From positions 97,842 to 161,841 of the forward strand of contig CAZDEP010000001.1 of assembly GCA_964504715.1 (NCBI GenBank): a DNA stretch of 64,000 nucleotides, read 5' to 3'. Of the stretch, positions 5,550 to 58,340 are shown one piece after another. Below the pieces are notes generated by a model, which searched no databases, had not been told where the DNA came from, and saw only the letters and a program-made list of their open reading frames with translations. How positions within the stretch are numbered: the first letter of the stretch is position 1; the number at the start of each line of letters is the position of its first letter. Both the position numbers and the translations under genes were made by a program. Source of the DNA: an uncultured Candidatus Saccharibacteria bacterium (GTDB taxonomy: Bacteria; Patescibacteriota; Doudnabacteria; UBA920).

Positions 5550-6044
5550 ATGATTCTTCCCATCTTAACTCATCCAAATAAAATTTTAAGACAGCCGACA
5601 GAGCCGGTGGCTTTCCCTCTTTCTCCTGAAATGCAAAAGTTGACCCGGGACATGATAGATACCGTCAAGAAAGCGGACGGAATTGGCCTGGCCGCGCCCC
5701 AGGTGGGCAGGTCGGTGAAGTTGGTTATTATAAATTTGGAAAAGTCCGGCCTTCCCCTCTTCCCGCTTTATAACCCAAAAATTACGTCCCGAGGTTTTAG
5801 AAAAATGGAAATTGAAGAGGGCTGCCTCTCCATCCCCGGCGTGTTTGGTATGGTTAAACGCCCCAAGAAAGTGACAATTGAAGCGCAGAATGCCCGGGGA
5901 GAAAAAATTTCCATAACCGACGAGGGCTGGATATCTCGGGTGGCCCAGCATGAAATCGACCACATAAACGGCGTGCTTATTATTGACCTGATAAAAAAAT
6001 ATACCCAGGGCGAAGATTTAGTCAGATTACAAATACACAAATAG
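5550..6044 (+). CDS. def: Peptide deformylase
   Basis: GIGLAAPQVG, EGCLSIPG and HEIDHINGV motifs. Confidence 0.95.
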   Translation: MILPILTHPNKILRQPTEPVAFPLSPEMQKLTRDMIDTVKKADGIGLAAPQVGRSVKLVIINLEKSGLPLFPLYNPKITSRGFRKMEIEEGCLSIPGVFGMVKRPKKVTIEAQNARGEKISITDEGWISRVAQHEIDHINGVLIIDLIKKYTQGEDLVRLQIHK

Positions 6045-7336: not shown

Positions 7337-8335
7337 ATGAATGATAATATGCCCGCCAGAGGCGGGTCCCTGCCCGTACGGCAGGCGGGCGCCTTTGGCG
7401 CAAAGATCGTATTTTTTGGAACATCCAACGTTGCGCTTCCGGTTTTAGAAGCTTTATCAAAAAAACATGAAATTGCGGCCGTGGTTACCATGCCGGACGC
7501 GCCGGTGGGCAGGTCCCAGGTTTTAACCGAAAGCCCGGTTTCCGTTTTGGCCAAAGAGATGAACTTAAAAATCCTGAAGCCTGCCAAGGTCAAGGATAAC
7601 GAAGTTTTTAAGCTGGAACTGCAGAGTTTTGGAGCTGAACTTTTCGTTGTCGTTTCTTATGGTCAGATTTTGCCAGAAGAAGTAATTAACATGCCGAAGT
7701 TTAGGACACTCAATGTCCACTTTTCTCTTTTGCCGAAATACCGCGGTCCTTCCCCCATCCAATCGGCAATTTTAAACGGCGAAAAAGAAACGGGCACATC
7801 AATTTTTATTCTCGACGAGCAAGTGGATCATGGGCCCGTTTTGGCACAAAAACCCATGACTATAGATGAGGATGACAATTCGGTAAGCCTTTCCCAAAAA
7901 TTAGCCTTCGCGTCTGCGGAGCTAATTATTCCCACCATCGAAAGTTACACATCGGGCAGCCTAATAGCCCAGCCTCAGGACGATGCCGCCGCCACGCACA
8001 CGCAGCATATAGACAAAGCCCACGGCAGGATTGACTGGAATAAGCCCGCGCAGGAAATTTATAACCAATTCCGGGCTTTTTACCCTTGGCCCGGGATTTG
8101 GACGAAGTGGGACGGGAAAATTTTAAAAATAGTTGATTGCAGAACTATAGAACTACAGAATCAAAACACTACAGATGCCTACAGAAACGGGCAGGTTTTG
8201 GATGGAGGGGTAGTGGCGTGCGGAGAAAATACTTGTTTGCAAATTAATACCCTCCAATTGGAGGGTAAAAAAGAAACAAAAATATTGGATTTTTTGAACG
8301 GTTATCCCAATTTTATTTCATCCTTGCTGGAATAA
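7337..8335 (+). CDS. fmt: Methionyl-tRNA formyltransferase
   Basis: IVFFGTS N-terminus, HFSLLPKYRGPSPIQSAIL formyltransferase motif, C-terminal Fmt domain. True start may be a downstream Met. Confidence 0.9.
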   Translation: MNDNMPARGGSLPVRQAGAFGAKIVFFGTSNVALPVLEALSKKHEIAAVVTMPDAPVGRSQVLTESPVSVLAKEMNLKILKPAKVKDNEVFKLELQSFGAELFVVVSYGQILPEEVINMPKFRTLNVHFSLLPKYRGPSPIQSAILNGEKETGTSIFILDEQVDHGPVLAQKPMTIDEDDNSVSLSQKLAFASAELIIPTIESYTSGSLIAQPQDDAAATHTQHIDKAHGRIDWNKPAQEIYNQFRAFYPWPGIWTKWDGKILKIVDCRTIELQNQNTTDAYRNGQVLDGGVVACGENTCLQINTLQLEGKKETKILDFLNGYPNFISSLLE

Positions 8336-8347
8336 GATTGTTTAGAC

Positions 8348-9247
8348 TTATTTTAGATATTTAAGCTTATTGGCTACGTGTTCCTCAAACGTCCTTGAAT
8401 ACACCGGCTCGCCCGAGGGCTGTTTGTGCAGGAAATAAAAGTAGTCGGTATGAGTAGGGTTTAAAACAGCCGTAATGGAAGAAAGTGAAGGGTTGCCGAT
8501 GGGCGTGGGTGGTAATCCCCTGTTTTTGTAAGTGTTGTAAGGGGAATTTTTTTCCAGGTCCTCTAAAAGCGGCGAAGGGTCATTTTTGCCGGTAAAGTAG
8601 TTAATTGTCGCGTCACTTTGGAGCGCCATGCCGGCATTTAGGCGGTTGTAAAAAATCCCGGCAACAATGCGCCGTTCTTCGTCCAGTCTGGCTTTGGATT
8701 CGGCGCTTATGGCATTTCTGCCGGTTTCGTTTTCAATTATTGATGCCAAAGTAATTGCTTCATACACGCTTAAACCCTGTTTTTTTGCCAGCGCTTCCGC
8801 GTTTGTAGGGAGCCGTTTTTTAAATGTGTCTAAAAGCTTTTTTATTATGGTTCCGGAAGCTTCGTCTGCAGGCGTTAATGAACGGTCGGAAATAGATTTA
8901 AACAAACGGTAAGAGTCGGGATATAAAAATCCTTGGAGGTCGCCTTTTGCGTCTTTGGGCAGCAAGTCGTCGTATTCCGAGGTATTAAAGTTTTTTAAGG
9001 CCTTTAAAAAATCACTCGCAGAAACAATCCCCTGCTTTTCCAAATAAGCGGCAATTTCTTTGTTGGACCAGCCTTCAATTATGCGGATATTTATTTCTTC
9101 GGCCTTCTGGTTTTCTATGGATTGCTTTTTTAAAAGCAATTGGTTTTTTTTGTATTTATAGTAAGCCCCGCCTAAGCCGCACGCTAAAATAAGCGCCAAG
9201 GCGCCTAAGATTATGCGGTGTTTTGTGCTGAGTAAAGAAATTTGCAT
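8348..9247 (-). CDS. mltG: Endolytic murein transglycosylase MltG/YceG family
   Basis: N-terminal TM helix and YceG-like core GLPPTPIGNPSLSSI...YFYFLHK. Confidence 0.75.
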   Translation of the reverse strand: MQISLLSTKHRIILGALALILACGLGGAYYKYKKNQLLLKKQSIENQKAEEINIRIIEGWSNKEIAAYLEKQGIVSASDFLKALKNFNTSEYDDLLPKDAKGDLQGFLYPDSYRLFKSISDRSLTPADEASGTIIKKLLDTFKKRLPTNAEALAKKQGLSVYEAITLASIIENETGRNAISAESKARLDEERRIVAGIFYNRLNAGMALQSDATINYFTGKNDPSPLLEDLEKNSPYNTYKNRGLPPTPIGNPSLSSITAVLNPTHTDYFYFLHKQPSGEPVYSRTFEEHVANKLKYLK

Positions 9248-9353: not shown

Positions 9354-10040
9354 TTACATTTTTTTGGTCAGGTCGTCTTCCATTGAATCCAGCCAGCGCT
9401 TTGCGGCATCTTTGCCGCCAAGACCAAAGGCGAGGCCTCCGGCTATGGCCAGCATGGCAATTATCGCGCGGAACAGATCCTGCAGGAAATCGGTGGCTAT
9501 ACCCAGCTGGGACAAGACCGCTATTACAGTAAAGACGATTATCGCCCACTTGGTAATTGCGCTCAGGGCCGATGCGGAATGGAGCTGGCTGGCTTTTACA
9601 GCCGCGGTTACCAATCCAGAGAAGAAATTGGCGGCCAAGAGCCCCAAAAGCATAATGGCAGCGGCTACCACCACGTTCCCCGCGTATCGTAAAACGTCGG
9701 TGTAGAGGAAGTCGCTGACTTTGTTAAGTCCCAAGATTTCTGCGGCGGCCATAAAGCTGCCAAGGAAGAAAAACCATTTTACCAGCCAAGCCCCGAACCC
9801 CGAAATAGACAAGCGGCGATCAACCCGTGCCGAAAGAGCCGTAAGACCAAGTTGATTGGCAAGGGTGTCAATCTTTATAGCTTCCAGAAGCTGTCTAATA
9901 AGCTTGCTTAAGAATATTGCTAAAAGCCAGCCCAATATGACTACCACAACCGCGACTAAAAGGTTAGGAGCCCAGCTTGCGGCTTTGTCATAAAGGTTTT
10001 CCAAGGCTTTTAGGGCAACGCTTGAGTAAGTATCTGTCAT
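9354..10040 (-). CDS. Integral membrane protein with repeated conserved TM-helix motifs (MscS-N-terminal-like family)
   Basis: Four or five hydrophobic helices with repeated LGL/ALS segments. No catalytic motif. Confidence 0.4.
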   Translation of the reverse strand: MTDTYSSVALKALENLYDKAASWAPNLLVAVVVVILGWLLAIFLSKLIRQLLEAIKIDTLANQLGLTALSARVDRRLSISGFGAWLVKWFFFLGSFMAAAEILGLNKVSDFLYTDVLRYAGNVVVAAAIMLLGLLAANFFSGLVTAAVKASQLHSASALSAITKWAIIVFTVIAVLSQLGIATDFLQDLFRAIIAMLAIAGGLAFGLGGKDAAKRWLDSMEDDLTKKM

Positions 10041-10135: not shown

Positions 10136-10576
10136 TTATTCTCCGATTATGGTAATGTTCACCTGCCTGTCTCTCCCTCCGTCGCACTCTACAAAAAACA
10201 CGCTTTGTCTGGGGCCTAAAATCAGCTGTCCTTTTTCAATTCCCACCGATTCCGATGACCCTAAAATAAAAGCTTTAACGTGTGCGTGGCCGTTACTCCT
10301 TTCGTTGGGGGCAACATTTTGCCTAACCTCAAACAGGTCATGGCTGTAACTTACGTCCACAGGTGCCAGACGGTAGAGCATTTTCATAATGTCCTGAATA
10401 AGCAAGGGCTCATTGTGGTTAAGCCTTATCCCGGCCGTGGTGTGTGGGCTGCCCACGCTTACCAAGCCGTTTTGGACGCCTGACTCTACCACCGCTGTCT
10501 TAATTTGCAGGGTGATATCTATAAGTTCAAACTGCTTTTTAGTCTGAAGGAGTATTTTTTTATTTTCAATTTTCAT
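10136..10576 (-). CDS. yjbQ: YjbQ family protein (UPF0047)
   Basis: HTTAGIRLNHNEP...GHAHVKAFILGSSESVGIEKGQLILGPRQSVFFVECDGGRDRQVNITIIGE fits the YjbQ pattern. Confidence 0.75.
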   Translation of the reverse strand: MKIENKKILLQTKKQFELIDITLQIKTAVVESGVQNGLVSVGSPHTTAGIRLNHNEPLLIQDIMKMLYRLAPVDVSYSHDLFEVRQNVAPNERSNGHAHVKAFILGSSESVGIEKGQLILGPRQSVFFVECDGGRDRQVNITIIGE

Positions 10577-10819
10577 ATTTTTGTATCTGTGGGTCCCAGC
10601 AAGTTTGCCAGTATTTTTAAATTATACCATATCTTTGCCAAATGGGGAAATCAAAAACTCCGAAACAGAGCACTTTGCGTAGTTGCTCTATTTATCGAGC
10701 CTTAAAAAGGCCTGATAAATCAGGCAACTACTACAAAAAACTACAAAAAACCAAGGGGAAATTAAAACTCCCCTACCCATAAAAAAGGGAGAGGAGTTTC
10801 TTTGGCGCATACGGTAGGC

Positions 10820-11092
10820 TTATAGAATGGCTTCTTTGGCCTGCTTGGCAACACGGAATTTTATAACGGTTTTGGCAGGAATCTGGATCTGTTCGCCGGT
10901 GGCCGGATTGCGACCCATGCGGGCGGGGCGGTTCTTCTTAACAAGCTTGCCTAAGCCCGGAAGGGTAAATTCCCCTTCTTTTTTGGTAACTGTGTAGGCC
11001 ATATTTACTAAAGCTTCCACCATTTCGCTAACTTCTTTGCGGGTCTTGCCCAATTTGTCGGCTAAGCCCTGCAAAAGTTCTGACTTGGTCAT
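10820..11092 (-). CDS. hup: DNA-binding protein HU
   Basis: MTKSELLQGLADKLG...RNPATGEQIQIPAKTVIKFRVAKQ, 90 aa. Confidence 0.9.
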   Translation of the reverse strand: MTKSELLQGLADKLGKTRKEVSEMVEALVNMAYTVTKKEGEFTLPGLGKLVKKNRPARMGRNPATGEQIQIPAKTVIKFRVAKQAKEAIL

Positions 11093-16658: not shown

Positions 16659-17390
16659 TTAGACACCCTTTAAGTACTTGAGCCTTAAAGTTTGGGGCAG
16701 GCGTTCTATGGAATACCTAAGCATTGTCCTGGGCATTTGCTTGTGGTGGCGGTTGAGAAATTCTATTAGCAGTGCTTGGTTGCAGCGTTTGCCCGCTTCC
16801 CTAAGCATCCAGCCCGTGGCTTTGTGGATAAGGTCGTGCTTGTCATCCATTAAAATTTTTGAAATCTGCAAGGCGTCTTTTGCGTCGCCATAGTAAATAA
16901 AATCAAAAGTGGCCAAAATTGCAATCCGCCTTTCCCAAAGGTTTTTGGATTTAGCCAGCCGATATAAAATTGCTTTATTTTTTTTGCGCAAGTAAGCGCC
17001 CACAATTTTTGGCGCGCTTAAATCCACCAAATCCCAGTTGTTTATGTATTTGGTGTGCTTAAGATAGAAATCAAAAATTGCCTTTTGCTCTGGCGTACTA
17101 GCTTGTCCGTCGTAGTCTTGACGAAGACGGGTACTTTGAAACTTGAAAATAAGGATAAAAAGTGCGATCAGCCGCTCTTCGTGGATTTTGCTTTTGAGTA
17201 AAGTTTTTAAATCTTTTAATATTAAATCTTTAAATTGCCTGGCCACTTGCCTTTGCGCGGGCACCACAATACCTAAAAATTTGTCGCCCTCGCCATACTC
17301 CCCTTTTCCCGTCTTAAAAAACCTTTGCAGAAGTTCTGCCTTTTTGGGGTCGGCCAGTTTTCTTATTTCGTCTCTGAGTTGATATAACAT
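16659..17390 (-). CDS. DNA alkylation repair protein (AlkC/AlkD HEAT-like repeat family)
   Basis: N-terminal LADPKKAELLQRFFKTGKGEYGEGDKFLGIVVP is characteristic of PF08713. Confidence 0.75.
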   Translation of the reverse strand: MLYQLRDEIRKLADPKKAELLQRFFKTGKGEYGEGDKFLGIVVPAQRQVARQFKDLILKDLKTLLKSKIHEERLIALFILIFKFQSTRLRQDYDGQASTPEQKAIFDFYLKHTKYINNWDLVDLSAPKIVGAYLRKKNKAILYRLAKSKNLWERRIAILATFDFIYYGDAKDALQISKILMDDKHDLIHKATGWMLREAGKRCNQALLIEFLNRHHKQMPRTMLRYSIERLPQTLRLKYLKGV

Positions 17391-17414
17391 GTCTGAATTA
17401 TAGCAAAAAAAGAA

Positions 17415-18046
17415 GAAGCGGGCGCGTCCTCGTCAGCCGGCATTTAAGCCTTTAGACGATTAAAGCGCCCGCGTAAAGCTTTGGGTCATGCGAGCGACTT
17501 GCCACAGTATTGGCAAGCCGAAAGGAGTTCTTGTCCCCCGTTGCCGTTAGCAACAGGGAGAACTCGGCGATCCAGGTCGGTCCTGTACCACCGACCAGCC
17601 CCCTCCTTGAGGATACGCACGTCGCGCGGTTTTGCCGCGCAAGCGTGCTCCTCAAGGAGGCGGTTTTCGAGCCTCCTTGATTCTTGCATACGGCAAATAA
17701 TACACAAAAATTTTCATTAAATCAAGCCGCCGTAGCATCGTCGCTTGAAAAAAAATCAAGATAAGCGTAGAATTTGGGTTATGCAACAAGAGGAAACGGT
17801 CGGGCCCGGCCCGACCGCCACCCATTCTCAAACCCGCGGGGGCGGGTTTGGGGCGGACGATCCGTACGAAACGGATCGCCGTTTTTCTTCCGCGCCTTCA
17901 AGCGCGGAAGAAACCCCCGCCCCCGCACCGCGGCCTGGCCATGCGCCAGGCTGCGAAGAATAACCCCTTGCCCTCCGCGCGCAAAATCCATCTACACAAA
18001 AAAAGCCTTCCCTTTCATGCGCGCGGAGGCTTTTTTTATTTTAACT
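17415..18046 (+). ncRNA. GC-rich (about 65% GC) hairpin-dense non-coding island; candidate structured ncRNA(s) of unknown class
   Basis: At least nine perfect 7-12 bp stem-loops, including gcgggcgc/gcgcccgc, cttgcca/tggcaag, cggtcgggc/gcccgaccg, aaacccgc/gcgggttt, gatccgt/acggatc and cttccgcgc/gcgcggaag. Mutually exclusive pairings between 17601-17612, 17648-17660 and 17670-17678. Ends in a strong intrinsic terminator. No credible ORF and not listed in the track. Confidence 0.45.
17972..18042 (+). terminator. Strong rho-independent terminator (11-12 bp GC stem CCTCCGCGCGC/GCGCGCGGAGG, then UUUUUUUAUUUU)
   Basis: Seen directly. No U-run on the opposite strand. Confidence 0.7.
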
Positions 18047-18190
18047 GAATTAATATATTGTCTGTCATTCCGGACTTGATCCGGAATCTAGATCCTGAAA
18101 CCCCAGTAGTAGAACCTTTGGTTCACTACGGGGCAAGCGAGTTCAGGATGACAAAACGGATAGGTTGTTTTGTGCTCGTCGCAATGACAA

Positions 18191-19723
18191 TCAAACTAAT
18201 AAGCTTTCCCCGGTCATTGACGCGGGTTTTTTTTTGTGCATTAGGCTTAAAATGGTGGGAGCGATGTTGGCCAAAGAACCATTAAAAGATTTAAGATTTA
18301 AAGATTTAAAATTGGAAACCAATATAAACGGAACAAGATTGGTTGTGTGGGCGGTGTGTTTTTCGCCCGTAACTGAATCAACATTCTGTTCCGCATTGCC
18401 GTGGTCCGCGGTCACTATTGCAACCCCTTTTTTAGACAGCACAGCCTCGCAAACCCGTTTAAGTTCCCTGTCCACGGTTTCCACGGCGGTAATTATTGCG
18501 CTTTTGTTTGCCGTATGGCCCACCATATCGGCATTGGCAAAATTTACCACCAGAAAATCGTCGCCGGCGCTTATTCTCTCTATGGCTTTGTCCGCAATTT
18601 CCCGCGCGCGCATTTCGGGCGCCAAGTCGTGCGTGGCCACATCGCGCCGGCTGTCAATTAAAAAATGTTGTTCCGCCACATGCGGGGTTTGCCTGCCGCC
18701 GTTGAAAAAGAAAGTCACGTGCCCGTACTTTTCCGTTTCCGCAATGTGCGACTGCTTTAAGCCGGCCCGGCTAATTTCCGCCGCCAAAGTTGTATCCAAC
18801 TTTTGCGGCGGGAAGGCAACCACCGCGTCTATGTCGGGATGGTATTCGGTCATGGTTACAAAAAACAAATTTTGTTTTTTTGCGCGCTCCACAATTTTTA
18901 GCGAGAGCTGGCGCGGCCGGTCGGTGCGGAAATTAAAGAAAAAAATACCATCGTTATCCTCGACCGTGTACGCTTTGCCGCTATCATCCAAAAAAACCAG
19001 CGGTTCCAGGTACTCGTCCATAGCCCCTTCTTGGTAAAGCGCGCGCAGGGCCTCGGAGGGCTTAAGGCCTTTGAAAGTTTTGCCTTCGCCTTCAAAAATT
19101 GCCTTTTCCGCTTTTTCCGTCCGGTGCCAGTTTTTGTCGCGATCCATGGCAAAATAGCGGCCGGTGGCCGTGGCAATAAAGCCTATTCCTAAATCTTCCA
19201 CCACTTTCTCCAGCTCGCAGAGGTACTTATGGTTTTCCTTGGGAGGCGCGTCGCGCCCGTCGGTAAAGGCGTGAATAATTATTTTGCTTATGCCGGACTG
19301 TTTGGCCGCTTTTAAAAATCCGTGCAAATGTTCCTGGTGGCTATGCACCCCAATGGGGCTGACCATGCCTAAAATATGCAGCGCGGAGTTGTATTTTTTG
19401 ACATGCTCAAACAGCTTAACAAAAGCCGGATTGGACTTAAACTCGTCATTGTTTAAAGCTTTGGATATGCGGACAAGTTCGGTGTCTATGGTTCTGCCCG
19501 CCCCCATTGTCATGTGGCCGATTTCGCTGTTGCCAATGGTGCCCTTGGGCAGGCCCACGGCTTCTTCGGACGCGTCCAAAACAGCATGGGGGTATTTCTC
19601 CATGGCATAATCAAAAAATGGGGTATGAGCCTCGGCAATGGCATTGTGTTCGCTTTCCTGCCGAAGGCCCCAGCCGTCTAAAATAATAAGGCAAACTGGG
19701 CGTATACCATCATACTTTATCAT
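18191..19723 (-). CDS. gpmI: 2,3-bisphosphoglycerate-independent phosphoglycerate mutase
   Basis: N-terminal LIILDGWG, metal-binding ADHGN motif, 510 aa. Confidence 0.9.
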   Translation of the reverse strand: MIKYDGIRPVCLIILDGWGLRQESEHNAIAEAHTPFFDYAMEKYPHAVLDASEEAVGLPKGTIGNSEIGHMTMGAGRTIDTELVRISKALNNDEFKSNPAFVKLFEHVKKYNSALHILGMVSPIGVHSHQEHLHGFLKAAKQSGISKIIIHAFTDGRDAPPKENHKYLCELEKVVEDLGIGFIATATGRYFAMDRDKNWHRTEKAEKAIFEGEGKTFKGLKPSEALRALYQEGAMDEYLEPLVFLDDSGKAYTVEDNDGIFFFNFRTDRPRQLSLKIVERAKKQNLFFVTMTEYHPDIDAVVAFPPQKLDTTLAAEISRAGLKQSHIAETEKYGHVTFFFNGGRQTPHVAEQHFLIDSRRDVATHDLAPEMRAREIADKAIERISAGDDFLVVNFANADMVGHTANKSAIITAVETVDRELKRVCEAVLSKKGVAIVTADHGNAEQNVDSVTGEKHTAHTTNLVPFILVSNFKSLNLKSFNGSLANIAPTILSLMHKKKPASMTGESLLV

Positions 19724-26118: not shown

Positions 26119-26198
26119 CCTTTCTATTTTAACACAAAATCCGTATTGTCAATAAATTTATTAAAAAAACATCCCGCTGTAAGCGGGATGTTTTTTTA

Positions 26199-30284: not shown

Positions 30285-31172
30285 TTGACCAAGATGAAAA
30301 TCCGGGAATGCCTAAAAAAATATTCAAACATAGAAATCGAGCTCCTTTTGGCGGATGTGTTAAAAAAGCCTAAGGAGTTTATTTTTTTGCATCCCGAGTT
30401 TATTTTATCATCTAAACATCTTAAGACTTTGGAAGCGCAAGTTAAGAGAAGACAGGAGGGCGAGCCCGTGGCTTACATTTTGGGCTACAAGGACTTTATG
30501 GGGCGTCGTTTTGCCGTAAATAAGGATGTGCTTATTCCCCGCCCGGAGACTGAAGGGCTTGTCGAACTTGCGCTCGACAGAATTAAGAATTATGAATTAG
30601 GAATTAAGAATGCCAAATCGTTACGTATTTTGGACGTGGGCACAGGCAGCGGGTGCATAGCTGTTTCTTTGACAGCAATGATGCCCGTTGCGCCAAGCAA
30701 CGGGTATCATTGCGAAATCACAGCGTCGGATATATCAAAAAAAGCTTTGGTAGCAGCCAAGCAAAATGCAAAAAGCCACAAAGCAAAAATCACATTCATC
30801 CACAGTGATTTGTTTAAGGACATTCCTGGCAAGTTTGATGTGGTTGTGGGCAATCTTCCTTACGTGCCTATGAAAATGCTTAGGAAGCATTTGTTGCACC
30901 GCGCCAAGTTTGATGCCCAGGACCCTTTTGCCGGTTTAAAATACGAACCCAAATTCGCGCTAACGGACGGGACCAGTATTTGGCTAATCTACAAACGTTT
31001 TTTTGAGGAAGCCAGGGCGCATTTAAACCCCGGCGCGGTGATTCTGCTTGAAATTGACCCGGCATCGAGAAAGTTTTTAAAAACTTATCAGCAGAAGTAT
31101 TTGCCGGGAGCTAAGGTGAAATTTTATAAAGATGTAAACAATTTGTGGAGGTATATGGAAATAGCAAGATGA
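30285..31172 (+). CDS. prmC: Release factor glutamine N5-methyltransferase
   Basis: ILDVGTGSGCIAVSL SAM-binding motif and VVVGNLPYVP (NPPY-like). Adjacent to prfA. Confidence 0.85.
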   Translation: MTKMKIRECLKKYSNIEIELLLADVLKKPKEFIFLHPEFILSSKHLKTLEAQVKRRQEGEPVAYILGYKDFMGRRFAVNKDVLIPRPETEGLVELALDRIKNYELGIKNAKSLRILDVGTGSGCIAVSLTAMMPVAPSNGYHCEITASDISKKALVAAKQNAKSHKAKITFIHSDLFKDIPGKFDVVVGNLPYVPMKMLRKHLLHRAKFDAQDPFAGLKYEPKFALTDGTSIWLIYKRFFEEARAHLNPGAVILLEIDPASRKFLKTYQQKYLPGAKVKFYKDVNNLWRYMEIAR

Positions 31173-31203
31173 CGGTCTTCTTGCGCCGCAAGAAGACCGT
31201 CAT
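31169..31203 (+). repeat. Perfect palindromic hairpin ATGACGGTCTTCTTGC-GCC-GCAAGAAGACCGTCAT overlapping the prmC stop; second copy at 58306-58340
   Basis: 16-bp arms identical at both loci with loops gcc and ttt. Further terminator hairpins at 31231-31257 and 31285-31318. Confidence 0.7.
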
Positions 31204-34803: not shown

Positions 34804-37800
34804 ATGAACTTTGTTCACCTCCATTGCCATTCCCATTATTCGCTGCTTGATGGGCTGTCCAAAATTGACCCGCTGCTTACGCGGGCCAAGGAACTTGGCA
34901 TGCCTGCTTTGGCTTTAACCGACCATGGCACTATGTATGGTGCCGTGGAATTTTATACGCACTCCAAAGATATAGGCATCAAGCCCATAATTGGCCTTGA
35001 GGCTTATATTGCGCCAAGGAACCTTGCGGACAAAGAAGGCCGAAGCGACGCGGACTATTTTCATTTGACTTTGCTTTCCAAGAACAGTGAAGGTTATGCC
35101 AATCTTATTAAACTGACGACCATTGCGCATTTGGAAGGCTTTTATTACAAACCGCGCATAGATTTGGAAGTATTAAAGAAGCACTCAGAAGGGTTGATAG
35201 CCTTAAGCGGCTGCCAGCGCGGCGAAATTCCGCGCGCCATTATGAACAGGCCGCAAGGTGAAGCCGACAAAGTGTTGGGAAAATATTTGGATATTTTCGG
35301 GCGCGAAAATTTATTTATTGAAATCCAAAAGAATAGCCGCCATGACGACCCCAAAGAACTGGAGTTACTGGAAAAGTCGGTGGCTTTTGCGCGGCACAAT
35401 TCGTTGCCTTTGGTGGCCACAGCCGATTGCCACTATATATATCCGGAAGATATGGAAGCCCAGGACGTTTTGGTGTGTATTGGTACGGCGCGCACTGTGG
35501 GTGACGCTAACCGTTTGGATATGCGCGGTTACGATTTGTCTTTAAAATCCGCGGAAAAAATGGCTGAGCTTTTTTATCAAACCCCCGAGGCGCTGGAAAA
35601 CACCCTTAAAATTGCCGAGATGTGCAATTTTGAAATGAAGCTCAACCAGCGTTATTTTCCAAGCGTGCCAATCCCGGAAGGCATGACTTCCGCGGAATTT
35701 TTGCGGCAGCTGACATACGAGCGGGCGAAAAATATTTACGCCAAGGACGGCCCCAATTCTCCCATCCCCCCCGAAATCCAAACGCGCATAGACTACGAGC
35801 TCGACATTATTATAAAAAAAGGTTTTGACACCTACTTTTTAATGGTGGCCGATGTGGTGGAAGGTGCGCACAAAGTCGGTGCGATTACCAACACCCGCGG
35901 CAGCGCGGCCGGCAGCATTGTGGGATACATTTTGGGCATTACCAATGTGGATCCGCTCTATTTTGAATTGCCTTTTGAGAGGTTTTTAACCGCCCATCGC
36001 CCCACACCGCCGGATATTGACCTGGATATTGCCGACAACCGGCGCGATGAAGCCATTGCCTATATTACAAAAAATTACGGCCGCGACAAAGTGGCACAAA
36101 TAATTACTTTTGGGACCATGAAGGCCCGGGCGGCGGTAAGGGATGTGGGCCGCGCTTTGGGCGTGCCCTATTCCAAATGCGACCGCATTGCAAAAATGAT
36201 TCCAATTGGCAAGCAGGGGTTTGACATGACCCTCGACAAGGCCCTTGAGATGAGTCCGGAACTTAAGGAAGTTTACGCCCAGGATCCCGAAACGCGCACT
36301 GTGCTGGAAATTGCAAAAAAAATCGAAGGCAATGCCCGCCATGCCTCGGTCCACGCCGCCGGCTTGGTTATTACTCCCACGGTTTTAACCGACTACATGC
36401 CCTTGCAGAAAGAACCCGACGGCGAACGCATTATTACCCAGTACGATATGTACGCTTTGGACGTAAATGCCAACAGTAAGGCCATTGGCGTGGTAAAATT
36501 GGACCTTTTGGGCATCCGCAATCTTTCCATTCTGGAAGCGGCGGTAAATTTGGTAAAAAAGCGCCACAACATCGACATCAACATATACAAACTGCCGCAT
36601 CCGGATAAAAAAACTTTTGAGCTGCTCGGCGCCGGCCTGACCTTCGGCGTTTTCCAGCTTGGGTCTTCGGGCATGACCAGGTATTTAAGGGAGCTTAAGC
36701 CTGCCTCCATTTTTGACATTATGGCCATGATAGCGCTTTACCGCCCGGGGCCCATGCAGTTTATAGAGGATTTCATTAAACGCAAGCACAACCCCCAGCA
36801 CATAAAATATTTTGATCCGGCTTTTGAAAAAATTCTCCACAGGACCTACGGCATTTTGGTGTACCAGGACGATTTGCTCACAATCGCCCACGATTTGGCG
36901 GGCTACAGCTGGGAAGAAGTGGATAAGTTCCGGAAGGCCGTCGGTAAAAAAATTCCCGAAGAAATGGCCAAGCAGAAAATTAAATTTATCCAGGGCTGTA
37001 TGAGCACGAGCGGCTGGAGCCACACCAAGGCTTCGGAAATTTGGAATTGGATTGAGCCGTTTGCCGCTTACGGCTTTAACAAATCCCATTCGGCGTCATA
37101 CTCGGTCGTCGCTTACCAGACGGCTTTTATGAAAGCCAACTATCCGGTGGAATTTATGGCCGCGGTTATGACCGCCGAGTCGGGAGACGAAGACAAAATT
37201 TACGAGGCCGTTGAAGAATGCAAAAATTTAGGAATTAAAATTTTGCCACCCGATGTTAATACCTCCGATGCCGACTTTACGGTGGTCGACGAAAAGACGA
37301 TCAGGTTTGGCCTCAACGCCGTGAAGAATTTAGGGAGCGATGTGATCGCCAAGATAATTGAGAGCAGAAGTGTAGTCGACCCATTTATGGGGCCTGATAA
37401 ATCAGGCAACTACTTCCAATCTCTGGAGGATTTCCTGCTTAGGGCCCACGTTAAAAATTTCAACAAAAAATCCTGGGAAGCTTTGGTTAAAGCCGGCGCG
37501 CTGGACAATTTTGGGGAAAGGAACCAGCTCTTGGCCTCCACGGAAGAGGTTTTGGATTTTGTCCGGGAACATTTTAAGGCCGAGGAGCAGGGACAGGTGT
37601 CGTTGTTCGGCAAATCTTTAAAACTTGGGCAGCTGGTTTTAAAAAAAGTTGAGCCCGCTACCAAAGAAGACAAGCTGGGGTGGGAAAAGGAACTTTTGGG
37701 CATGTATGTTTCCGCGCATCCTTTGGATAATTACCAAAAAGTACTGGGCCACCTTTCTTCCATCCGCCAGTTAAAAAGCGCGGCGGACGGCAGTATTGTT

Positions 37801-38301
37801 TCCGTCGGCGGGATAATCGCCAAGCTCAGGCGGACATTAACCAAAAAGAATGACCCTATGGCTTTTGTGACTTTGGAAGACCCGAGCGGCACGGCCGAAG
37901 TGCTTGTTTTCCCCAAAGTTATGGAAAAAGCCCTCCCCTTTTTGCGCGGGGAAGCGGTGGTGGAAATAACCGGCCGGCTGTCGGTGGAAGAAGACGACTT
38001 TACAATAATCGCGGATGAATTAAAGGACCTCCCCAGGGATTCGGTATACGAAGTGGCTTTGGCGGAAATGGAGAAATCAAAATCGTTGGTAATTTTTATG
38101 AATTCGCTTGCCAGCCTAGGAGTGTTAAATAAAATTAAAGATGTCCTTGGGGGCCACGCCGGAAACGCGCAGGTGTATTTGCAGCTGGGAGTCGGGCCAA
38201 CTGCAAAAAAAATCAAGACGCAGAGTTCGGTCCGAATTAGTCCTGAATTGGTGGAAAGCCTAAAAAAAATACGTGAAATTTCCAAAGTGGATGCGGTATG
38301 A
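34804..38301 (+). CDS. dnaE: DNA polymerase III alpha subunit
   Basis: N-terminal PHP domain (VHLHCHSHYSLLDG), polymerase core and C-terminal OB domain, 1165 aa. Carries the 24-nt palindromic element ggcctgataaatcaggcaactact at 37391-37414. Confidence 0.95.
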   Translation: MNFVHLHCHSHYSLLDGLSKIDPLLTRAKELGMPALALTDHGTMYGAVEFYTHSKDIGIKPIIGLEAYIAPRNLADKEGRSDADYFHLTLLSKNSEGYANLIKLTTIAHLEGFYYKPRIDLEVLKKHSEGLIALSGCQRGEIPRAIMNRPQGEADKVLGKYLDIFGRENLFIEIQKNSRHDDPKELELLEKSVAFARHNSLPLVATADCHYIYPEDMEAQDVLVCIGTARTVGDANRLDMRGYDLSLKSAEKMAELFYQTPEALENTLKIAEMCNFEMKLNQRYFPSVPIPEGMTSAEFLRQLTYERAKNIYAKDGPNSPIPPEIQTRIDYELDIIIKKGFDTYFLMVADVVEGAHKVGAITNTRGSAAGSIVGYILGITNVDPLYFELPFERFLTAHRPTPPDIDLDIADNRRDEAIAYITKNYGRDKVAQIITFGTMKARAAVRDVGRALGVPYSKCDRIAKMIPIGKQGFDMTLDKALEMSPELKEVYAQDPETRTVLEIAKKIEGNARHASVHAAGLVITPTVLTDYMPLQKEPDGERIITQYDMYALDVNANSKAIGVVKLDLLGIRNLSILEAAVNLVKKRHNIDINIYKLPHPDKKTFELLGAGLTFGVFQLGSSGMTRYLRELKPASIFDIMAMIALYRPGPMQFIEDFIKRKHNPQHIKYFDPAFEKILHRTYGILVYQDDLLTIAHDLAGYSWEEVDKFRKAVGKKIPEEMAKQKIKFIQGCMSTSGWSHTKASEIWNWIEPFAAYGFNKSHSASYSVVAYQTAFMKANYPVEFMAAVMTAESGDEDKIYEAVEECKNLGIKILPPDVNTSDADFTVVDEKTIRFGLNAVKNLGSDVIAKIIESRSVVDPFMGPDKSGNYFQSLEDFLLRAHVKNFNKKSWEALVKAGALDNFGERNQLLASTEEVLDFVREHFKAEEQGQVSLFGKSLKLGQLVLKKVEPATKEDKLGWEKELLGMYVSAHPLDNYQKVLGHLSSIRQLKSAADGSIVSVGGIIAKLRRTLTKKNDPMAFVTLEDPSGTAEVLVFPKVMEKALPFLRGEAVVEITGRLSVEEDDFTIIADELKDLPRDSVYEVALAEMEKSKSLVIFMNSLASLGVLNKIKDVLGGHAGNAQVYLQLGVGPTAKKIKTQSSVRISPELVESLKKIREISKVDAV

Positions 38302-43731: not shown

Positions 43732-43922
43732 ATTTTAAGTTAAATCGGCTTTGGAATATTAACAGCTTGCAATGTATTGGCTATATTTTAAAACATTTTT
43801 GGAAATTTGTCGAGATTCTGTTATAATTTTTGTGTCAACCTGAACTTATTTCAGGATCCAGGAAATAAGAAATCAAAAACAAAAAAATGGATTCCGTATC
43901 AAGTACGGAATGACAGACAAGC

Positions 43923-45626
43923 TTGGAGTTCAATCTTTTTTATCAAATTACAGGCATAATAGTCTTGGCCGGCATTGTGGCAATGCTGGTGTCCTTCCTC
44001 CGGCAGCCTTCCATAATCGCATTCATTATTACCGGTTTGGTGGTGGGCCCCTTAGGCTACATGCAGCTCCACCAAAGCGGCACGCTGGACGCCCTCGGCC
44101 AAATAGGCATCACCTTGCTGTTGTTCATGGTTGGTTTGGAATTGGATTTAAAACGCATAAAGCAGCTGGGCAAAGTTTCTTTTAAGGCCGGCTTGGCCCA
44201 AATTGTATTAACAACTGTGGCCGGATTTTTCCTTTGCACCCTGTTGGGTTTTGACCCGGTGGTTTCTTTATATGTGGCTGTCGCTTTAACTTTTGCCTCC
44301 ACCATAATTGTCGTAAAATTGCTTTCGGAAAAAAAGGATCTGCAGGCGCTTTATGCCCGCATAGTTGTTGGCGTTTTAATAGTCCAGGATTTTGTCGCTT
44401 TGGCCATATTGCTGTTCGTGGGCGGCAGCGGCGGCGAACACAACGATATTTTTAAAGCGCTTCCCACTTGGCAGTATTTGATTGCCATGGTGGTTAAGGT
44501 TTTAATTTTGATTCTGCTGCTTTCCTGGCTAAGCCGCAAATTATTCCCGAAATTTTTAACCCGCTTTGGAAAGTCCGACGAACTTTTGATGGTCTTTTCC
44601 CTCGCCTGGGCTTTGGGCCTGGCGGCGTTTATGTCTTTGCCCGCGGTGGGTTTTTCTTTGGAGATTGGCGGATTTGTTGCCGGTTTGGCTTTGGCAAACA
44701 GCCATGTCCATTTTGAAATTTCGGCGCGGATTAAGTCGCTGAGGGACTTTTTCATTATCATTTTTTTCATTGTGTTTGGCACCAAACTGGCTTTTGCCGG
44801 CATTGGCGCGTTGTTCTGGCCGGTGTTGGCATTGTGCGGTTTTGTGCTTGTCGGGCAGCCGCTAATTATGATGTTGATTATGGGTGCTTTGGGCTACAAG
44901 CCGCGCACGTCTTTTTTTGCGGCGGTTACGATGTCTCATATTTCTGAGTTTAGCTTCGTGCTCATAGCTTTGGGCAACCGGCTGGGGCATATCCCCGATG
45001 CCATAGTCGGCGCGGTAACCTTGGTGGGGGTAATTTCAATTGCAGCCTCCTCTTACTTTATTACCTATACCCGTAAAATTTTTGACGTTCTTTCCCCTTA
45101 CCTCACCTGGTTGGATTTTAAAAAAGGCAGCGGTGAAAAAAGTTTGGAAGATACAAAATTAAAAAACCATATTATTTTGGCGGGCGCCAACCGTTTGGGC
45201 TCGAGATTTTTGGCTTCACTGGCTTCAAAAAATAAAATCGTTGTCGTGGATTTTGATCCCCACATCGTGCAAAAGTCGGAGAAAGAAGGTTATTTGGCAA
45301 TTTGCGGCGACGTGACCGACCCATATATTCAGGAGCAAGTCAGCATTTCTACAGCTAAAATTATAGTTTCTACCATACCGGATTTGGAAGACAGCCTCGC
45401 TTTGCTTTCGGCCGTAAAACAGCAAACGCGAGGACAGACGCGGCGGCCCAAGTTGATTTTTGTCGCGCAAAACGATTTTGAAAGCAAATATTTGTACGAA
45501 GAAGGCGTGGACTACGTTTTGTCCCCTCATTTTATTGGAGGTCTGCACCTTTCGCGCATATTGGACGGTGACATTGGCCTCGCGGGCTTAAAATCCCTGC
45601 GCAAACAGCATTTGGAAGTACTTTAA
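43923..45626 (+). CDS. Monovalent cation:proton antiporter (CPA2, KefB-like) with C-terminal TrkA-N/RCK domain
   Basis: About 11 TM helices then Rossmann-like HIILAGANRLG...VVVDFD. TTG start. Confidence 0.75.
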   Translation: MEFNLFYQITGIIVLAGIVAMLVSFLRQPSIIAFIITGLVVGPLGYMQLHQSGTLDALGQIGITLLLFMVGLELDLKRIKQLGKVSFKAGLAQIVLTTVAGFFLCTLLGFDPVVSLYVAVALTFASTIIVVKLLSEKKDLQALYARIVVGVLIVQDFVALAILLFVGGSGGEHNDIFKALPTWQYLIAMVVKVLILILLLSWLSRKLFPKFLTRFGKSDELLMVFSLAWALGLAAFMSLPAVGFSLEIGGFVAGLALANSHVHFEISARIKSLRDFFIIIFFIVFGTKLAFAGIGALFWPVLALCGFVLVGQPLIMMLIMGALGYKPRTSFFAAVTMSHISEFSFVLIALGNRLGHIPDAIVGAVTLVGVISIAASSYFITYTRKIFDVLSPYLTWLDFKKGSGEKSLEDTKLKNHIILAGANRLGSRFLASLASKNKIVVVDFDPHIVQKSEKEGYLAICGDVTDPYIQEQVSISTAKIIVSTIPDLEDSLALLSAVKQQTRGQTRRPKLIFVAQNDFESKYLYEEGVDYVLSPHFIGGLHLSRILDGDIGLAGLKSLRKQHLEVL

Positions 45627-45666
45627 AAAAACATCCCAATCTGATCGGGATGTTTTTTTTAAATGT

Positions 45667-49380: not shown

Positions 49381-50025
49381 ATGACTAAATTACCAAACAG
49401 TTTACAAAAGTTGATAAATGAGTTAAGCAAACTCCCCGGAATTGGGCCAAAAACCGCCCAGCGACTGGCCTTTTATTTGCTTAAAAGGGATAACATAGAC
49501 AATTCCGCGCTGACTCAGGCCTTAAACGAACTTAAGGGCGGAGTGGTTTTTTGTTCCATTTGCCACAATATGGTCGAAAGCGACCCTTGCATAACTTGCA
49601 CTGACCAAACCCGGGACGCTTCCCTTTTGTGCGTGGTGGAAGAGCCTTTGGACGCTTTGGCAATAGACAAAACCGGCAAGTTTAAGGGCAGGTACCATGT
49701 GCTGGGCGGGGTCTTAAATCCCATGGAAGGCATAGGGCCCGAGCAATTAAAAATAGATTCATTATTAGGGCGGATCAGCGCCGGTCGAGAAGATGACCCT
49801 CTCGCCGCGAGAGGGTCATCTTCTCCGGTTATGGAAATTATTATTGCCACCAACCCCAGTTTGGAGGGAGAAGCCACAGCCATGCACTTATCTAAAATTA
49901 TTAAGCAAGCAAACCCGGAGATAAAAATTACCCGCATTGCGCGCGGCCTGCCAATGGGCGGCGACCTGGAATACGCCGACGACATAACCCTCATGCGCGC
50001 CTTGGAAGGCCGAAGGGAATATTAA
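49381..50025 (+). CDS. recR: Recombination protein RecR, carrying a 13-aa in-frame insertion encoded by a perfect palindrome
   Basis: HhH motif, C4 zinc finger (CSICHN...CITC), Toprim domain. Insert AGREDDPLAARGSSSP between GIGPEQ and the Toprim ATNPSLEGEAT. Confidence 0.9.
   Translation: MTKLPNSLQKLINELSKLPGIGPKTAQRLAFYLLKRDNIDNSALTQALNELKGGVVFCSICHNMVESDPCITCTDQTRDASLLCVVEEPLDALAIDKTGKFKGRYHVLGGVLNPMEGIGPEQLKIDSLLGRISAGREDDPLAARGSSSPVMEIIIATNPSLEGEATAMHLSKIIKQANPEIKITRIARGLPMGGDLEYADDITLMRALEGRREY
49787..49825 (+). repeat. 39-nt perfect palindrome (GAGAAGATGACCCTCTCG-CCG-CGAGAGGGTCATCTTCTC) inserted in frame in recR
   Basis: Seen directly. Length is a multiple of 3. Flanked by ccgg..cgg. 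Resembles the GC-centred palindromes at 31169 and 58306. Confidence 0.7.
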
Positions 50026-50727: not shown

Positions 50728-51109
50728 AGGACATAGGCCACGAAGCTCATCGGAGTATCATGAAAGGCCAAAGAAAATTAAGATCACTAAAATCCCGCCC
50801 GGCGATTTGCCCGAAAATATCAGAGAGCAGTGGGTGGGTGTTGTTATTCCGCTTGCGCCTTTAGATGAACGGCTAAGGTACACAACCGGAGTTGAGTTGG
50901 GGGAACCCCAAAACCAAAATGGCTTTGAAGTTTTGGCCACTGAGGCTATTGCAGCCTTGCTAAAAAAATGTGAAGAACTTCAAAAAAATGGAGATGACGC
51001 AGCTTATGAAAAAGCCCACCAGGCGTGGCAAGCCTGGCTTAATTCATATTGGAATCGTGAAGGCATTAGGCTGGAGTTTAAAAGAGATTGCTGCGTTATT
51101 GTAGAATAA
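50717..51109 (+). CDS. Hypothetical protein, translationally coupled to the preceding ORF
   Basis: 11-nt overlap with the 50173 ORF. Basic N-terminus, then helical. Confidence 0.4.
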   Translation: MNFKGHRPRSSSEYHERPKKIKITKIPPGDLPENIREQWVGVVIPLAPLDERLRYTTGVELGEPQNQNGFEVLATEAIAALLKKCEELQKNGDDAAYEKAHQAWQAWLNSYWNREGIRLEFKRDCCVIVE

Positions 51110-51145
51110 AAAAACGTCCCGCTTACAGCGGGACGTTTTTTTATA
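51110..51145. terminator. Intrinsic terminator with conserved core CCCGCTTACAGCGGG (third member of a recurrent hairpin family)
   Basis: aaaaaaacgtcccgcttacagcgggacgttttttt. Same apical sequence as 2108-2141 and 26165-26196, with co-varying stem extensions. Confidence 0.65.
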
Positions 51146-58213: not shown

Positions 58214-58305
58214 TTATAAAAAAAACAGGCATTATTGCTTATACAGTAATGCCTGTTTTTAATTTGCAAGGTAGATTGCCAGCGGTTTGTTCGGCATAAC
58301 ATAAA

Positions 58306-58340
58306 ATGACGGTCTTCTTGCTTTGCAAGAAGACCGTCAT
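58306..58340. repeat. Second copy of the palindromic hairpin ATGACGGTCTTCTTGC-TTT-GCAAGAAGACCGTCAT; bidirectional terminator
   Basis: Arms identical to 31169-31203. A separate hairpin plus U-run at 58233-58268 terminates the GT39 gene. Confidence 0.7.

Follow-up and report, generated by a model that had tools for sequence, protein, structure and literature searches.

The 64-kb stretch of Doudnabacteria DNA analyzed here (contig CAZDEP010000001.1; referred to as the window, with all coordinates as window positions) harbors dnaE, encoding the 1165-residue alpha subunit of DNA polymerase III (34804..38301, plus strand), and, at a distance, a spacer between hup and a UPF0047 gene. Both sites contain the same 24 nucleotides, GGCCTGATAAATCAGGCAACTACT on the plus strand, located at 37391-37414 within dnaE and at 10709-10732 in the spacer. 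These are the only two exact copies in the whole window, no third copy was found there at a tolerance of up to 3 mismatches, and matches were seen in 0 of 100 dinucleotide-preserving shuffles. The view of the initial annotation that an exact 24-mer occurring twice in 64 kb is beyond chance was verified for both positions, as was its reading of the dnaE copy, which is in frame and encodes GPDKSGNYF, from the second base of codon G863 to the first base of codon F871. Other details needed correction. The core is indeed palindromic, but it comprises 16 nt (GCCTGAT-AA-ATCAGGC, 7+2+7) instead of the proposed 17 nt (7+3+7). The second copy is intergenic as described, but given the minus-strand orientation of hup its position is downstream of this gene, about 90 nt past the stop codon, and on the upstream side of the UPF0047 gene. 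The likeness of the two sites continues imperfectly past the 24 nt, and both hold an entire doublet of two inverted 22-nt units. Thus the repeat is palindromic as claimed, yet not a free-standing 24-nt element but one arm of a doublet of 42-53 nt. The 24-mer very probably consists of 2 nt and an entire 22-nt unit of a GTAG-tagged repetitive extragenic palindromic (REP) element, whose heads-outward doublets are non-autonomous and linked to REP-associated tyrosine transposases (RAYTs), one doublet being intergenic and the other tolerated within dnaE.

The larger element was recognized when the dnaE DNA of the window was set against that of two orthologs with a similar peptide, L001 from the metagenome-assembled genome (MAG) nzgw383 and L002 (L numbers denote the loci examined). 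The respective DnaE proteins are 74% (global alignment) and 83% identical to that of the window. The unit has the form GTAG-TT-GCCNNAT-TT-ATNNGGC (22 nt) and consists of a GTAG head, two bases and a hairpin of 6-7 bp with an AT-rich loop (GTAG-TT-GCCTGAT-TT-ATCAGGC); in the doublet two such units are inverted with their GTAG heads pointing outward. The 24-mer corresponds to one unit, GTAGTTGCCTGATTTATCAGGC on the minus strand, and 2 additional nt. The dnaE doublet (37372..37413, plus strand, 42 nt) spans 14 codons and encodes the peptide VVDPFMGPDKSGNY (V857-VDPFMGPDKSGN-Y870). Its left unit GTAGTCGACCCATTTATGGGGC (37372..37393, plus strand) has a CCCAT/ATGGG stem and partly degenerate head-proximal bases (TC GA for TT GC), and its right unit GTAGTTGCCTGATTTATCAGGC (37392..37413, minus strand), which accounts for 22 of the 24 nt of the 24-mer, has 2 nt (GC) in common with the left unit. 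The doublet in the hup-UPF0047 spacer (10679..10731, 53 nt, no strand assigned) is composed of a left unit GTAGTTGCTCTATTTATCGAGC with one stem mismatch (10679..10700, plus strand), a 9-nt spacer (10701-10709) and a right unit (10710..10731, minus strand) that is the same as the one in dnaE. This right-hand unit is identical in both window doublets and in L001, while the left-hand units vary.

All four window units read GTAGT(T/C)G.-stem-ATTTAT-stem-GC, with stems of 6-7 bp and loops of 2-4 nt, which is the structure of a GTAG-tagged REP unit, and both doublets are head-head (HH) heterodimers with GTAG on the outside. The stem variants among the copies are compensatory pairs (CTGAT/ATCAG, CCCAT/ATGGG, CCGAT/ATCGG and CCCAA/TTGGG). 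Folding of four doublets as single-stranded DNA (ssDNA) was far above that of shuffled sequences (z = -3.8, -4.8, -3.8 and -7.2), with -3.8 for the dnaE doublet and -7.2 for the spacer doublet. Searches against Rfam returned only tRNAs for the window and 18 loci, and weak miRNA-like hairpin matches with E values of at least 0.25 for the spacer. The exact 24-nt identity within one genome would also be expected if a dnaE fragment had been copied into the spacer, or the reverse, by segmental duplication or gene conversion and without involvement of a repeat family. However, the likeness ends at the doublet edges and no dnaE flank is common to both sites; furthermore, the unit is present in at least 19 other loci and the doublet architecture in at least 120, which renders such a copy event highly improbable.

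The distribution of the doublet was assessed by scanning one genome per GTDB species with the pattern GTAGT-N6-ATTTAT-N(6-36)-ATNAAT-N6-ACTAC, in which GTAGT, both loop hexamers, ACTAC and the HH arrangement are fixed. The species-representative genomes contain at least 120 stretches that hold at least 135 doublets. The taxon labels, taken from the MAG records, comprise Poribacteria, Dehalococcoidia/Chloroflexi, Planctomycetes, Zixibacteria, Chlamydiae, Omnitrophota, Elusimicrobia, Nitrospirae, Nitrospinota, Clostridia, Deltaproteobacteria, Ignavibacteria/Bacteroidota, Lentisphaerae, Stahlbacteria, Actinomycetota, Verrucomicrobia and Patescibacteria. Among the matches listed, 133 of 135 doublets are heterodimers and 119 of 135 are located outside any open frame of at least 150 aa. 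The five stem pairs left free by the pattern covary: in the 118 unique units of the matches listed, 90% of cells pair vs 54% (maximum 59%) in 500 shuffles, and 65% of the units pair at all five positions vs 7.6% in shuffles. The exact 22-mer of the window, GTAGTTGCCTGATTTATCAGGC, was found in at least 19 of the loci examined, with labels spanning at least seven phylum-level groups.

Besides dnaE, a few genes carry the repeat in frame. A doublet is translated as VVRPFMGSQDADKSAHY in atpG (ATP synthase gamma) of L116, which belongs to the same MAG as L001, and as ...CPIYWATVPDKSGNY... in tilS of a Chloroflexi MAG (L036), and a single unit in purD of L128 (5994-6015) encodes TADKSANY. This bears out the earlier proposal that short palindromic elements can sit in genes without breaking the frame. 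A palindrome in recR, which had been regarded as the same kind of element, differs in sequence and is not a member of the GTAG doublet family. In purE of L128 (Doudnabacteria MAG), like purD a gene of purine biosynthesis, a single GTAG unit GTAGCGTGCCAATTTATTGGCG at 7661-7682 encodes IANKLARY, and its head is the same as in the units flanking the RAYT gene of this locus. The position presumably corresponds to a native helix of other PurE proteins, and the unit may mimic or replace native residues. On predicted viral contigs (IMG/VR, L184-L193), nine of ten matches are true doublets of the Dehalococcoidia type (GTAGTTGCCCAATTTATTGGGC..CCTGATGAATCAGGCAACTAC), which may represent prophages, misclassified host DNA or a route of horizontal spread. 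L020 and L100, labelled Candidatus Nealsonbacteria bin.20, contain Arg/Gly/Pro-rich open reading frames (ORFs) of high-GC appearance together with Planctomycetes-type units (GTAGTGACCCGATTTATCGGGT), which suggests mis-binning rather than an origin from the candidate phyla radiation (CPR).

The loci were also analyzed for associated transposase genes. Clustering of all ORFs of 120 loci yielded no gene family common to many of them, and RAYTs were recognized via doublet-bracketed ORFs and a scan for HUH and Y motifs. In non-CPR genomes, L003 encodes a RAYT-like protein of 196 aa (HUH motif LPNHYHFL; YINSNP) with doublets on both sides, and L045 a doublet-flanked homolog thereof (E = 2e-43). Directly upstream of the RAYT gene of L045 (Poribacteria chromosome OZ220744.1), three near-identical doublets occur at an exact spacing of 150 nt (1570-1921), an array that repeats the doublet plus flank in tandem. 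In Doudnabacteria, a 137-aa protein of L050 (6320-6730, minus strand; IMPNHAHII; WQ; YVINNP) adjoins a cluster of at least seven units, and homologs of this protein led to L127 and L128. The RAYT-like genes of all three loci are bracketed by units with heads outward; those of L127 and L128 have one unit on each side (9957-9978 and 10413-10434 in L127, 9965-9986 and 10421-10442 in L128), with further units nearby, amounting to eight units in 20 kb in L128. The protein of L045 reached 90.6 bits with the NCBIfam model REP_Tyr_transpos (cutoff 80 bits) and 24.6 bits with Pfam Y1_Tnp (cutoff 23 bits). The L003 protein obtained 69.6 and 18.7 bits, respectively, and the L050 protein 67.4 bits with REP_Tyr_transpos, so that the L045 protein is alone in passing the NCBIfam cutoff. 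For the L050 protein, 204 homologs were found at E <= 1e-5; a precomputed PF01797 assignment exists for almost every one of the 120 listed, and some of those listed are named RayT or assigned to Doudnabacteria/Patescibacteria. Related genomes thus contain a RAYT gene with HUH and Y motifs and the Y1_Tnp fold, flanked by the same units, and this bracketing is the defining context of REP/REPIN-RAYT systems (PMC3733652, PMC5581495; REPINs being hairpins formed by REP doublets). By analogy with these systems, the doublets would be copied as single-stranded hairpins by a RAYT supplied in trans, an HUH/Y1 tyrosine transposase presumed to recognize the GTAG tag and the hairpin. Through such RAYT-mediated mobilization in the source genome, one doublet would have settled in the hup-UPF0047 spacer and a second, open in a single frame, in a loop of DnaE.

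Database matches of the dnaE product carry the Pfam PHP, DNA_pol3_alpha, HHH_6 and OB domains, and its nearest named relatives belong to Candidatus Doudnabacteria/Patescibacteria. HMMER alignment with the solved Pol III alpha structures of Taq and E. coli placed a 10-residue gap opposite VVDPFMGPDK, between "EER/EARN" and "GG(P/Y)F". This site is hypervariable in 120 orthologs, ranging from no insert (e.g. ...CHKAGIKF...) to about 70 extra residues, and about one third of the orthologs lack the segment. The residues are therefore not universal, as anticipated, and they are extra; however, the element encodes 14 residues, with a net gain of about 10, instead of the expected 8 or 9. In an AlphaFold2 model (52 orthologs, mean predicted local distance difference test score (pLDDT) 79.8), residues 855-873 form a coil that separates helix 845-854 from helix 874-880, and pLDDT drops below 50 at residues 862-867. 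The doublet is located in the loop after the first helix-hairpin-helix (HhH) helix of DnaE, and the protein would tolerate it as a disordered surface loop of 14 residues. Of the six frames of the 42-nt doublet, the one in use is the only open frame. Due to the CCCAT stem, the left unit is free of the TGA that the CTGAT variant would put in this frame. Doublets are not enriched in open frames, as at least one open frame per strand was found in 76% vs 79% of shuffles. Thus the in-frame state reflects survivorship under selection in an essential gene and not a built-in property of the element. The DnaE insert is presumably neutral.

The history of this loop was analyzed with 120 DnaE orthologs (P0001-P0120) and a neighbor-joining tree without support values. 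The DnaE of the window and P0002 belong to one clade with P0003, P0004 and P0005, which have no doublet, while P0010 (L001) belongs to a different clade and has a sister, P0026, that also lacks it. L001 and L002 carry the doublet at the same loop as the window, with compensatory stem changes. At the junction there is a difference of one codon, with NY-FQ-SLEDFL in the window vs NY-T-SLEDFL in L001 and L002, and the units of L002 belong to an AGCC..GGCT subfamily that also occurs in the Patescibacteria loci L128 and L048. In the comparison of the window with L001, 11 of 12 element codons have identical synonymous third positions vs 50% (412/819) elsewhere (binomial P = 0.003), whereas the excess is not significant for L002 (7/9, P = 0.16). 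These observations fit repeated insertion, homogenization from the REP pool of each genome, or constraint at the nucleotide level.

The latter explanation implies that the dnaE copy is kept by selection on the nucleotide sequence, either as an mRNA hairpin for translation or stability or as a binding site for a RAYT or another protein. It is in line with the synonymous excess between the window and L001, with the 22 of 22 identical nucleotides of the right unit in this pair, and with stems that change by compensatory pairs only. An equal pattern would, however, result from recent or independent insertion, or from gene conversion out of a conserved REP pool. In addition, the L002 copy represents another subfamily without synonymous excess, most DnaE orthologs lack the insert, and two pairs of the outer stem have been lost from the left unit of the window copy. 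Nucleotide-level selection on the dnaE copy is therefore considered unlikely.

Other inserts at the DnaE loop form hairpins in L124 (12557-12634, z = -2.7) and L125 (z = -2.35). The repeat within the L125 insert (ACAAGTGACAAGTTACAAGT...) recurs in thrS of the same locus (coordinates 5913-5993 and 8669-8698). Palindromy is not a general property of the inserts at this site, as those of L123 (z = -0.4) and L126 (z = 0.0) are unstructured. The presence of doublets in two DnaE clades, the separate subfamily in L002, the hairpin inserts of L124 and L125 and a published REP at a similar residue of Rickettsia conorii DnaE suggest that the loop might be a recurrent, possibly targeted landing site for ssDNA hairpin elements. 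The occurrence of the 22-mer under at least seven phylum labels, the synonymous excess in dnaE and the doublets on viral contigs might likewise point to a horizontally spreading REP-RAYT lineage, whose copies in replication genes might be functionally coupled to replication rather than neutral. This extended scenario is speculative and has a low probability.

The spacer copy is flanked by hup, encoding an HU-type DNA-binding protein (10820..11092, minus strand; PF00216, Bac_DNA_binding, E = 5.7e-26), and by the YjbQ-like UPF0047 gene downstream of the spacer (10136..10576, minus strand; PF01894, E = 7.2e-31). Relatives of the UPF0047 gene were found in 55 metagenomic loci, 21 of which have hup directly upstream. 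These 21 syntenic spacers (80-478 nt) contain no unit (0/21). Related spacers follow a common plan of hup stop codon, GC-rich terminator hairpin, extended -10-like motif TGGTATAAT and gene start. In the window, the terminator-like hairpin of hup with its T-run lies at 10754..10774 (minus strand), and a hairpin at the matching position is conserved in related spacers. The -10-like motif upstream of the UPF0047 gene is located at 10621..10629 (minus strand), as seen in an alignment with four related spacers in which the window row had been shifted by MAFFT and the register was corrected by eye. Between these two features the window spacer has about 100 extra nt that include the doublet. Judged from the syntenic and related spacers, the spacer copy is an insertion. 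The syntenic locus L077 does not form a filled/empty pair with the window, as an additional gene and unrelated sequence set the two spacers apart. Positioned between the hup terminator and the UPF0047 promoter, the doublet may be largely harmless and may provide an additional terminator-like hairpin. Adjacent to the GTAG head of the spacer doublet, two CTACAAAAAA copies form a tandem direct repeat (10731-10750), so that the minus strand carries three successive GTAG heads. The repeat may have been left by cleavage and rejoining at GTAG, or it may stem from partial duplication of the head.

On the transcribed minus strand, the right unit of the spacer forms a hairpin with CTTTTT after it and has a terminator-like score, which fits the published observation that REPs tend to be located downstream of ORFs. 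This feature could also suggest that the two window sites are convergent terminator-like hairpins, or resemble each other by chance, and have no common origin. However, shuffled sequences gave no matches, there is no reason for a terminator in frame in dnaE on the opposite strand, and neither the conserved unpaired GTAG head nor the RAYT association is a terminator feature; the probability of this explanation is negligible. Duplication of a dnaE fragment, chance and convergent terminators were thus rejected on the basis of the doublet-limited similarity, the shuffles and the family-level evidence.

The two copies lie on the same DNA strand and the spacer is transcribed opposite to dnaE, so that a minus-strand spacer transcript (the 3' untranslated region of hup or the 5' untranslated region of the UPF0047 gene) could pair with dnaE mRNA in trans in a perfect RNA duplex of 24 nt. 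The highly structured spacer, whose RNA as a whole folds with z = -5.1, might be seen in favor of such an antisense function. This complementarity, however, arises automatically whenever a palindromic repeat is present in two copies, and both partners are held in stable hairpins. Moreover, no Rfam family matches, and the absence of the spacer copy from 21 of 21 syntenic relatives argues against a conserved regulatory pairing. Antisense regulation is thus very unlikely, and the spacer doublet is best explained as a further copy of the GTAG-tagged REP element.

The superfamily of GTAG-tagged REPs was defined by stems of 5-13 bp, loops of 2-20 nt and a palindromic unit of 20-40 nt that bears an unpaired GTAG (or GTRG) at one end (Di Nocera, De Gregorio and Rocco 2013, PMC3733652). 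HH dimers, often heterodimers, predominate among them; they are associated with tyrosine transposases and are mostly extragenic, located downstream of genes (PMC3733652). The element analyzed here shares with these REPs, including the Stenotrophomonas SMAG family (PMC3733652), the 22-nt unit, the unpaired 5' GTAG, the 6-7 bp stem with complementary variants and the short loop. It also resembles them in the predominance of HH heterodimers, the extragenic bias, the occasional in-frame copies and the repeat-flanked RAYT genes. The tagged unit, the compensatory stem, the repeated and mostly extragenic family and the HH dimers were all found, although for the doublets outside the window the HH arrangement is imposed by the search pattern. 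The present unit, GTAGTTGCC-NNAT-TT-ATNN-GGC, is distinguished by its AT-rich loop. Neither ATTTAT nor GTAGTTGCC occurs in the supplements of PMC3733652, to which the comparison with the 24 published families is limited. Furthermore, GTAG REPs usually form families at the genus level, whereas the 22-mer has a broader occurrence under at least seven phylum-level labels, and the CPR/Patescibacteria host is not mentioned in the REP/RAYT literature examined. Nothing specific was found in literature on CPR/Patescibacteria with palindromic in-frame repeats or REPIN/RAYT systems.

The two inverted REPs within a longer hairpin (z = -3.8 to -7.2) and the repeat-bracketed RAYT with HUH and Y motifs, one gene per locus, also agree with REPIN-RAYT systems (Bertels and Rainey 2011; Bertels et al. 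2017, PMC5581495). The doublet is therefore an HH heterodimer in the terms of Di Nocera et al. and REPIN-like in those of Bertels and Rainey. Classic REPINs of RAYT groups 2 and 3 reach tens to hundreds of copies per replicon (PMC5581495), whereas the density is lower here: the 64-kb window has two doublets (four units), and other loci of Doudnabacteria contain 0-8 units per 10-24 kb. The motifs of the RAYTs from Doudnabacteria (NHAH, WQ, YVINNP) resemble those of subclass 2.4/group 4, a group with a modest abundance of flanking repeats, and the RAYTs of L050 and L003 differ from the curated REP_Tyr_transpos family by scores under the cutoff.

Two other kinds of short palindromic elements are comparable. 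Rickettsia palindromic elements (RPE), reportedly described by Ogata et al. in 2000, are said to be restricted to Rickettsia, with a size of about 100-150 bp for RPE-1. They are alike as palindromic in-frame inserts in essential genes that are tolerated as surface peptide segments, but the present element is only 42-53 nt long, GTAG-tagged and hosted by Patescibacteria, and hence is not an RPE. Miniature inverted-repeat transposable elements (MITEs) such as Correia and Nezha have terminal inverted repeats derived from insertion sequences with DDE transposases and create target-site duplications. They are likewise short, non-autonomous inverted-repeat elements that sometimes occur within ORFs; however, the transposase associated here is of the HUH/Y1 type instead of the DDE type. 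There is no target-site duplication at either window copy (flanks AGAAGT|GTAG...CTAC|TTCCAA and TTTGC|GTAG...CTAC|TACAAA), and thus the element is not a MITE. Intragenic REPs often occur in replication and repair genes, as in dnaE2 of O. terrae and dnaE of R. conorii (PMC3733652). The R. conorii dnaE REP covers residues 853-861 of 1181, and the short intragenic repeats of this species are CGTC-tagged and have no dedicated transposase (PMC3733652). By residue numbering alone, this insert is near the loop of the window (857-870 of 1165). The finding in dnaE thus represents a known phenomenon in a new lineage, as REPs in replication and repair genes were already published in 2013 (PMC3733652).

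Several points weigh against the assignment to a RAYT-linked REP family. With only two doublets in 64 kb, a high copy number is not established by the window, and tblastn detected no RAYT gene in it. No transposition event, target-site signature or same-species allele with an empty site was observed, and the evidence for mobility is indirect, consisting of the presence or absence of the element at orthologous sites. An insertion target motif was not found either; the flanks are T-biased at positions -1 and -2 only, and the window copies do not follow this bias. The conserved GTAGT, ATTTAT and ACTAC of the 135 doublets are imposed by the search, and the spread over phyla rests on MAG labels, some of which are possibly mis-binned. 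Finally, the doublet at the same loop in two DnaE clades and its absence from their sisters could result from repeated insertion or from ancestral presence followed by replacement.

Further repeats were observed in the window. The palindrome in recR (49381..50025, plus strand) is perfect, 39 nt long and in frame (49787-49825, GAGAAGATGACCCTCTCGC-G-GCGAGAGGGTCATCTTCTC). It encodes about GREDDPLAARGSSSP right before the Toprim motif 'IIATNP', is devoid of a GTAG head and has no second copy in the window. It is probably the recR case of the initial annotation and a different type of repeat. Two 38-nt palindromes at 31166-31203 and 58303-58340 are 89% identical (ATGACGGTCTTCTTGC...GCAAGAAGACCGTCAT) and each lies where the 3' ends of two convergent genes face each other. 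Possibly they form a second REP-like family or a family of bidirectional terminators, and their GACGG/CCGTC ends recall CGTC-tagged REPs. Four copies of a palindrome with an A-run, a GC hairpin and a T-run (AAAAAAACATCCCGCTGTAAGCGGGATGTTTTTTT; 2105-2141, 26161-26197, 45623-45659 and 51106-51142) are 70-100% identical and look like bidirectional intrinsic terminators with a common sequence. A GC-rich stretch of about 700 nt (~17400-18100, 55-66% GC vs ~42% in the flanks) lacks a convincing ORF, has an AT-rich inverted repeat on either side (17205-17235 and 18281-18311), and gave no Rfam match at E <0.08. It may be an unannotated structured RNA. A dispersed short repeat is represented by an inverted pair of 31 nt at 18058-18088 and 43890-43920 (TTGTCTGTCATTCCGGACTTGATCCGGAATC, 94% complementary), each member of which has a small hairpin of its own.

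CPR genomes are streamlined and have a size of about 1 Mb. The assignment to a GTAG-tagged REP family explains the puzzle of the exact repeat and indicates that even such genomes carry elements of the REP-RAYT type that are able to decorate an essential replicative polymerase. For annotation, peptides of the "VV.PFMG...DKSGNY" type in proteins of Patescibacteria and Chloroflexi are encoded by a repeat and do not belong to the protein family. The hypervariable loop of DnaE is a permissive site that would be usable for tagging. The occurrence of a single GTAG unit under many phylum labels would make this an unusually broad REP family and a good substrate for studying the recognition rules of RAYTs. 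What remains of interest beyond the known phenomenon is thus the presence of REP-RAYT systems in reduced CPR genomes, a unit shared across phylum labels, and a repeatedly hit loop in DnaE.

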